Shown piece after piece: positions 3,413 through 3,546 of a DNA stretch of 64,000 nt. This stretch comes from Candidatus Uhrbacteria bacterium GW2011_GWC2_41_11 (GTDB lineage: Bacteria; Patescibacteriota; Patescibacteriia; UBA9934; GWF2-40-263): contig LCAH01000007.1 in NCBI GenBank assembly GCA_000996355.1, positions 11,089-75,088 on the forward strand, given 5' to 3'. The notes below the pieces were generated by a model, which had not been told where the DNA came from, searched no databases, and saw only the letters and a program-made list of their open reading frames with translations. The translations under genes were made by a program, and so were the position numbers. The first letter of the stretch is position 1, and the number at the start of each line of letters is the position of its first letter.

Positions 3413-3546
3413 AACTTTCTCATTTTGCCCATTCTGGGTTTACCATGCATCGGATGGTGCATGGCTTACAGGGATCCCAGTTTTTTCTTGCTGTACCATT
3501 TAGTACAGCTTGATAAAACTTCCACCCCGTGCACCCAAACTGGTCT
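3413..3546 (+). repeat. approximately 133-nt repeat element, copy 1, with a conserved 9-bp-stem hairpin (ccatgcatc-ggat-ggtgcatgg)
   Basis: About 88% identical to the reverse complement of 55741-55872. Contains a second hairpin ctgtac-catttag-gtacag. A stem-loop plus T-run terminator follows at 3594-3630. Confidence 0.6.

Follow-up and report, generated by a model that had tools for sequence, protein, structure and literature searches.

Genomic setting of the repeat

The window analysed here, a stretch of 64,000 nucleotides from Candidatus Uhrbacteria GW2011_GWC2_41_11, carries genes for L9, CTP synthase, L27, MraY, FtsW and MurG as well as scattered tRNA genes. It also contains two copies of a structured repeat in inverted orientation, which the first-pass annotation had described as about 133 nt long and about 88% identical. 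The orientation and the identity were confirmed (88-90% by alignment; inverted-repeat pairs I1/I2 of the repeat finder), with profile E-values of about 1e-54, far above chance. The length had to be revised, since the limits of the two copies are 3410-3564 (155 nt) and 55875-55723 (153 nt). Moreover, the two copies first noticed are not the only ones, because two more loci were found, one between ligA and gatC and one next to a nitroreductase gene. The four copies are:

3410-3564, plus strand: copy 1, 155 nt, beginning 4 nt past the rpmA stop codon and ahead of the rpmA terminator
55875-55723, minus strand: copy 2, 153 nt, between the terminator of a 411-aa gene and the promoter of a 241-aa gene
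Between ligA and gatC, antisense to the genes: copy 3, 156 nt at full length (loci L150, L153 and L154)
After the nitroreductase gene and before a 402-aa gene that is followed by ruvA, antisense: copy 4, 127 nt

The third locus was found in a metagenome scan with the hairpin pattern and two flanking bases on each side. Its full length was obtained by GatA look-ups, and the fourth locus by look-ups of the nitroreductase gene in many assemblies. The number of four is a lower bound, as not even the window's own copies were recovered by the metagenome scan and the scan of a genome collection (see below) is judged from the matches listed. Exact protein matches assign the window to Candidatus Uhrbacteria GW2011_GWC2_41_11, GWF2_41_16 and GWA2_41_10 and the metagenome-assembled genome (MAG) GCA_003523645.1, all from aquifer metagenomes. 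Protein accession series common to all four loci (KKR86xxx, KKR97/98xxx, HBO99/HBP00) place them in the same Uhrbacteria genomes.

Limits and anatomy of the element

Imperfect terminal inverted repeats of 13 nt were found in four of four copies (TAGGACTTTCTCA and TGAGAAAGTCCTA). All copies start with TAGRAC(C)TTTCTC and end with GAGAAAGTYYTA. Similarity between the copies (85-91% identity across the family) breaks off exactly at these inverted repeats in every case, and the flanks share nothing. Such a sharp boundary is not expected for part of a larger segmental duplication, a source that had been considered in the first-pass annotation and can now be set aside. The element is 127-156 nt long, with a core of about 127 nt and a longer form of 153-156 nt that contains an additional 22-bp palindrome, termed E22 here. 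By eye, no open reading frame is conserved between the copies; the sole ATG-started frame sits within E22, and an indel in copy 2 breaks it.

Two hairpins had been reported for both window copies, and both were located in each of them:

3443-3464, plus strand: hairpin 1 (E22) of copy 1, CCATGCATC-GGAT-GGTGCATGG, flanked by TTTA (3439-3442) and CTTA (3465-3468)
55821-55842, minus strand: hairpin 1 (E22) of copy 2, CCATGCATC-GGAT-GGTGCATGG
3490-3509, plus strand: hairpin 2 of copy 1, GCTGTACCATTTAGTACAGC, GCTGTAC...GTACAGC, with CTTG on either side
55777-55796, minus strand: hairpin 2 of copy 2, GCTGTAC...GTACAGC, with CTCG on either side

The 4-mers around hairpin 2 (3486-3489 and 3510-3513 in copy 1, 55797-55800 and 55773-55776 in copy 2) read CTCG/CTCG in copies 2, 3 and 4 (L150 and L159 for the latter two) and CTTG/CTTG in copy 1, and are thus altered in concert on both sides. 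Hairpin 2 may be another nested palindrome insertion.

Probable insertion sites and flanking direct repeats

Direct repeats of 5 bp flank all copies:

3405-3409 AATTG and 3565-3569 AGTCG, plus strand: flanks of copy 1, 3 of 5 positions matching
55876-55880 TTTGT and 55718-55722 TTTGT, minus strand: flanks of copy 2, 5 of 5 matching
TTTTA and TTTTA: flanks of copy 3, 5 of 5 matching
AAACA and AAATA: flanks of copy 4, 4 of 5 matching

Target-site duplications had been suggested as a check in the first-pass annotation, and the flanks agree at 17 of 20 positions, compared with a mean of 41% and a maximum of 80% in other registers. Because the flanks are T-rich, chance agreement over 5 bp is more likely here than in random DNA, and we consider the matches supportive rather than conclusive evidence for a target duplication. 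TA is present at both ends of every copy and is indistinguishable from the outermost bases of the inverted repeats. An alternative register would have a 2-bp TA duplication, as in MITEs derived from IS630/Tc1-mariner, and an element starting with GGAC.

The copies occupy at least four unrelated AT-rich intergenic sites, mostly at or directly past a stop codon. Relative to the neighbouring genes, copies 1 and 2 are in sense and copies 3 and 4 in antisense orientation, and the distance to the next gene is about 130-160 nt for copies 1 and 2, 7 nt for copy 3 and 41 nt for copy 4. The spacing of about 150 nt to a downstream gene in the same orientation, as originally noted, is therefore a property of the two window copies and does not extend to the other two. 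A terminator had also been assigned to the downstream side of each copy. This holds for copy 1; at copy 2 the terminator precedes the element, which is inserted in its T-tract, and none follows. Both terminators belong to the host context:

3589-3628, plus strand: intrinsic terminator downstream of copy 1, outside the element
55918-55889, minus strand: intrinsic terminator upstream of copy 2

The genes on either side of copy 2 (54850-55575 and 55931-57166) encode two very acidic proteins and are tandem paralogues, with an 82-nt stretch of 71% identity and a common motif ...EKFD...; neither protein has a Pfam match.

At the ligA-gatC junction, the gap between the two genes measures 165 nt here, which equals the 156-nt element, a 5-bp duplication and 4 nt. 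In Uhrbacteria relatives with about 70% GatA identity and the same gene order (ligA-gatC-gatA-lgt), the gap is 9 nt (L157) or 4 nt (L158). Removal of the 156-nt element and one TAAAA repeat from copy 3 yields ATTTAAAATTATG, with a stop-start spacing of 4 nt. In copy 4, the first three bases of the element, TAG, are the stop codon of the nitroreductase gene, and deletion of the element and one repeat in silico reopens a frame that ends 2 codons on (by eye). A conspecific empty site was not found in the 10-24 contigs per locus, and the relatives used for comparison are only about 70% identical in GatA.

The element also leaves traces in genome assemblies. Two assemblies have different 31-nt deletions in copy 3, one at an end (L151, identical to L141) and one internal (L140), and many contigs of other assemblies end within the element, at L122, L133, L134, L146, L149, L155, L156 and L164. 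In the MAG contig DOFP01000019.1 (L152/L160, from GCA_003523645.1), the nitroreductase flank is joined to the gatC flank across the repeat. Since the nitroreductase and gatC loci are separate in more than 15 other assemblies, this join is likely an assembly chimera at the element, the alternative being a recombinant across the repeat. The element thus breaks or mis-joins metagenome assemblies, with one public MAG contig likely chimeric at this point.

As far as sequence can tell, the repeat is probably a MITE-like, non-coding and non-autonomous inverted-repeat insertion element of Candidatus Uhrbacteria. A mobile repeat was among the readings offered in the first-pass annotation, and it is the one that is borne out by the dispersal of at least four copies, the terminal inverted repeats, the 5-bp flanks, the mixed orientation, the filling of a tight gene junction and the assembly breaks. 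The four copies, perhaps with one remnant, are few for a MITE family and count against this reading. Judging by its anatomy, the core, some 127 bp with an inverted repeat at each end, would transpose non-autonomously into T-rich sites and duplicate 5 bp, and a transposase supplied in trans would recognise the inverted repeats and make the copies.

Folding, covariation and transcription signals

The whole element is predicted to fold into a single long branched hairpin, alike on either strand (z-scores of -4.4 to -6.8; -4.4 to -6.4 on the given strand). An equally good fold on both strands is what one would expect from a nested DNA palindrome, and the strong apparent structure probably reflects nested palindromy alone.

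We considered whether the copies could instead represent a family of independently transcribed small non-coding RNA genes of about 150 nt, trans-acting and with a three-way-junction-like fold. The stability of the fold and the intergenic position of the copies would suit such genes, as would the G.U pairs, some of which are tolerated on the 'sense' strand only (in hairpin 1 of copies 1 and 2, and in the closing stem of copies 2 and 3). Other substitutions favour the reverse strand, namely an A.C in copy 1 and a G-to-A change in hairpin 2 of L119. With substitutions in both directions no strand is favoured, and an attempt to assign the strand from G.U versus A.C pairs was abandoned because the signals are contradictory. 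The covariation analysis proposed in the first-pass annotation gave a single double change, located in the inverted repeat, and of 500 shuffles, 117 did equally well; the four sequences are too similar for this analysis to be informative. No promoter-like site was found in or adjoining any of the copies, and Rfam 15 gave no match for the element at the gathering score or at E<=10 (window, both hairpin regions, and L150/L159), only tRNAs and noise. Outside the inverted repeats there is zero conservation between copies. Copy 1 begins 4 nt after a stop codon, copy 3 fills the ligA-gatC junction, copy 4 is devoid of hairpin 1, and deletion variants are tolerated in two assemblies. Small RNA genes, one of the readings first offered, are thus very unlikely.

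A cis-regulatory leader or UTR element (riboswitch or attenuator) for the gene about 150 nt downstream had been proposed as well, and each window copy does precede a gene of its own strand. A separate promoter intervenes between the element and this gene at both copies, together with the terminator at copy 1. The four copies precede genes that are unrelated to one another, for a membrane protein (copy 1), an acidic protein (copy 2), GatC (copy 3) and a 402-aa protein (copy 4), and two of the copies are antisense to theirs. For the 331-aa gene downstream of copy 1, the only two homologues found (63% and 71% identity) both have an upstream region without the element; in one of them, L143, a similar promoter-like sequence is kept by eye. 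We regard a leader function of the element as extremely improbable.

It could also be argued that the element, once inserted, was adopted by the host as a repetitive extragenic palindrome comparable to REP/BIME, ERIC or BOX, and is now kept for the stabilisation of mRNA ends, operon punctuation or the binding of nucleoid proteins. All copies lie in co-transcribed positions, either at the end of a gene or at a gene junction, copy 3 is retained within an essential operon, and palindromy is well kept, with 98% of the predicted pairs intact among the four copies. Pairing of this quality is equally expected of young copies that are 85-91% identical. The tolerance of different deletions by two assemblies, the presence of only four copies and the absence of conservation evidence in other species also speak against adoption, which is unlikely. 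For a MITE-like insertion, the copies in the rpmA 3' UTR and at the ligA-gatC junction would be co-transcribed into a long RNA hairpin, and an effect on mRNA processing or stability would be incidental. Nothing indicates a selected RNA function for the element.

A 22-bp palindrome nested inside the element

Hairpin 1 is missing from copy 4, and the deficit amounts to precisely 22 bp together with a 4-bp duplication that reads CTTA in the sense orientation of the element. The junction in copy 4 reads ...CCCCGTAA followed directly by ACTCAAAATGGG..., and the corresponding stretch of copy 3 reads ...CCCCGTAAG (CCATGCACCAGATGGTGCATGG) TAAGCCCAAAATGGG... In copies 1 and 2, the 4-bp duplication around E22 has decayed to TTTA/CTTA. 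As copy 4 is short by exactly E22 and 4 nt, the element is a composite of nested insertions, and this filled and empty pair demonstrates that the 9-bp hairpin (hairpin 1) is the separately inserted palindrome E22.

E22 thus entered one copy of the core with a 4-bp duplication, giving rise to the 153-156-nt form. Because three loci carry the same nested insertion, this composite would have kept spreading, to at least three loci. Repeated site-specific insertion of E22 is an alternative to the spread of the composite. In copy 3, which has a C-G pair at the variable arm position of E22, this position and the loop resemble their counterparts in copies 1 and 2 in flipped form.

E22 at tRNA genes and in other phyla

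At 22 bp, E22 has the general form CCATGCAYC-N4-GGTGCATGG. Its arms measure 9 bp each, and the 4-nt loop varies freely (GTAT, ATAC, ATAT, GTAC, AGAC, GGAT and others). The window contains related sequences next to tRNA-Gln (31304-31377):

31375-31396, plus strand: free-standing E22, between position 73 and C74 of tRNA-Gln
31370-31374 and 31397-31401: CGGAG flanks of this E22, with the original CCA at 31402-31404
31378-31421 and 31482-31525, plus strand: exact direct duplication of 44 nt, 104 nt apart, adjoining tRNA-Gln
31479-31500: second hairpin, left arm altered to CTCTGCACC versus CCATGCACC
31597-31854: GIY-YIG nuclease gene (85 aa), 200 nt downstream of E22

The second duplicate (31482-31525) contains, in this order, the last 19 nt of E22 at its 3' side, CGGAGCCA and the tRNA trailer. 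The kinship between the hairpin of the repeat and the hairpin at tRNA-Gln, pointed out in the first-pass annotation, is real, as both are copies of the E22 module. The hairpin had been counted twice at this tRNA; the first occurrence is complete, and the second, with its changed left arm, is part of the 44-nt duplication. A U.G to C-G change between the hairpins had been taken as compensatory. It is one-sided and represents variation at one arm position of E22, and carries no argument about RNA structure.

A hairpin-pattern scan of a genome collection yielded at least 117 loci, with 118 sites among the matches listed. At 16 of the 118, the 22-mer is directly bracketed by exact 5-nt direct repeats; at 10 further sites the repeat has one mismatch, and at 3 it is 4 nt long. 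As a control, 63 shifted registers gave a mean of 0.27 and a maximum of 5 exact 5-nt repeats. The target duplication would be 4-6 bp long, mostly 5 bp, of the form C-N3-G; the target words start with C (CGGAG, CTCCG, CTTCG, CGGAA, CGCGG, CGGGG, CTCCA).

Fourteen sites in tRNA genes for Gln, Ser and Asn are built alike, with E22 between positions 73 and 74, as N69-N73 followed by CCATGCACC-N4-GGTGCATGG, N69-N73 again and CCA. Ten of them have exact 5-nt flanking repeats, and the other four are off at one or two positions. The CCA with which E22 starts recreates the end of the tRNA gene; the original CCA stands after the second flanking repeat. Sites and hosts are:

E22 at tRNA genes: loci L005, L008, L015, L025, L048, L062, L065, L070, L097, L099, L100, L103, L105 and L113; in the window, 31370-31404
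Hosts: Patescibacteria, Terriglobia (including a 2.6-Mb contig), Acidiferrales and one MAG labelled Gammaproteobacteria

At L059, which holds the one exact hairpin match among those listed, the palindrome lies within an open reading frame. As E22 and its duplication together make 27 nt, the reading frame is kept.

Hairpin 1 may be one member of a family of ultra-small insertion palindromes, apparently undescribed so far, that favours the 73/74 junction of tRNA genes in several phyla. We put this forward tentatively. No description of E22 was found in the part of the literature covered. When longer elements framed by E22 arms and a target duplication were sought, the sole match was a 126-bp stretch that results from the local duplication at tRNA-Gln. 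A family of phage contigs from IMG/VR (L165-L167, L170-L172, L174 and L175) carries CCATGCACC-TTGT-GGTGCATGG with flanks AAACAC/AGACAC, which match at 6 of 6 positions in L172; this palindrome may be an E22 insertion with a 6-bp duplication.

Small GIY-YIG nuclease genes (78-96 aa) were found downstream of the tRNA in the window and at L008, L025, L048, L097, L099, L113 and L143. Including the window, 7 of the E22 tRNA sites have such a gene within a few hundred nucleotides. The spacing between E22 and the gene was measured for six loci, and is 36-95 nt in five of them and 200 nt in the window. In several of the GIY-YIG loci the gene comes after a motif, CGTCATGC-N3-6-GGTGAA, and after a terminator-like hairpin whose loop contains CTTGACA. 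No second boundary of a cassette was found past the GIY-YIG genes. That the nuclease mobilises E22 or cuts its target is pure speculation. Their recurrent neighbourhood is a lead, open to testing, on what this widespread and poorly understood family of small nucleases does.

Search for further copies and for a transposase

A profile search of 1.25 Mb, which took in the 10 kb before and the 8 kb after the window, gave no further copies, and the 155-nt element was absent from the loci listed by the hairpin-pattern scan of the genome collection. Scans of viral contigs with four patterns returned unrelated matches only, and BLAST searches against plasmids and phages gave no match. The inverted repeat had no second occurrence elsewhere in the window or in the 175 loci.

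One sequence is of note as a possible remnant:

31852-31866, plus strand: possible remnant of the 5' inverted repeat, TAGGACTTTCgTCAT, overlapping the stop codon of the GIY-YIG gene (31597-31854)

It consists of a 10-nt exact match and 4 nt beyond one inserted base, for which we estimate about 0.1 chance matches per window. The overlap with a stop codon parallels copy 4, whose TAG terminates the nitroreductase gene. With low confidence, this sequence could be read as a truncated fifth copy.

No transposase domain was detected in 20 proteins of the window, and within the approximately 130 kb of genome read no autonomous partner was found, in the form of a transposase gene framed by these inverted repeats. 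A transposase-like gene with helix-turn-helix domains in the relative L157 was considered as a partner and rejected, as its inverted repeats are unrelated.

Comparison with known palindromic repeats

Correia elements of Neisseria and RUP of Streptococcus pneumoniae are non-coding MITEs of 100-160 bp with terminal inverted repeats and a TA duplication, present in hundreds of copies. They are intergenic, often co-transcribed into long hairpins, and occur as nested or internally deleted size variants. The Uhrbacteria element is likewise short, non-coding, bounded by inverted repeats, intergenic and hairpin-forming, with nested variants. It differs from them in the lack of sequence similarity, in its apparent 5-bp duplication at T-rich targets and in the number of known copies, which is four. 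We found no description of a MITE in the literature on Patescibacteria (CPR).

REP/REPIN sequences have a conserved 5' GTAG, make no target duplication and co-occur with a RAYT transposase gene. The Uhrbacteria element resembles them as a short extragenic palindrome repeated in the genome. Unlike them, it has flanking duplications and is devoid of a GTAG head, and no RAYT gene was seen among the 20 window proteins. Because target duplications are present, it falls outside the REP/REPIN definition.

Rickettsia palindromic elements (RPE) are selfish elements of 100-150 bp, found in Rickettsia only, that insert in genes, including RNA genes, without destroying them. E22 at L059 would similarly be a harmless in-frame palindrome insertion; unlike RPE, E22 is 22 bp long and occurs in several phyla. 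Among very small mobile hairpins, E22 can be compared with the GC-cluster hairpins of yeast mitochondria (GC42 family), which are 42 nt long, GC-rich and mobile by a mechanism that is possibly RNA-mediated (PMC4478555). Similar to the GC42 family, E22 combines a very small size with conserved stems, changes in the loops and nesting into larger palindromes; in contrast to it, E22 is bacterial, has 22 bp and a target duplication of 4-6 bp, and prefers the 3' ends of tRNA genes.

CPR/Patescibacteria genomes are small and streamlined, and the element would represent miniature mobile DNA that invades even essential operons (ligA-gatCAB). The probable MITE itself is of an ordinary kind in an unusual host, and the nested E22 with its apparent targeting of tRNA ends across phyla is the stronger lead. 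Should E22 prove to be truly mobile, few known insertion elements would be as small, and its own CCA would let the insertion sit harmlessly in tRNA genes across phyla.

Other observations in the window

An 872-aa protein encoded at 24567-27185 matches the shoulder domain of the Major Vault Protein (E-value 7e-26) and contains Vault_3 repeat domains, which is unexpected for a CPR bacterium. A promoter-like word of 27 nt (CTTGACATTTTTGGATTTTTTTGATAA) recurs at 3638-3664, 10926-10952, 35220-35246 and 39515-39541, upstream of several genes. Finally, two terminator-like hairpins of 43 nt (35152-35194 and 35914-35956), 88% identical (ACAACCCGTCTCC...GAACGGGTTGTTTTTT), lie on either side of a 222-aa gene (35240-35908).
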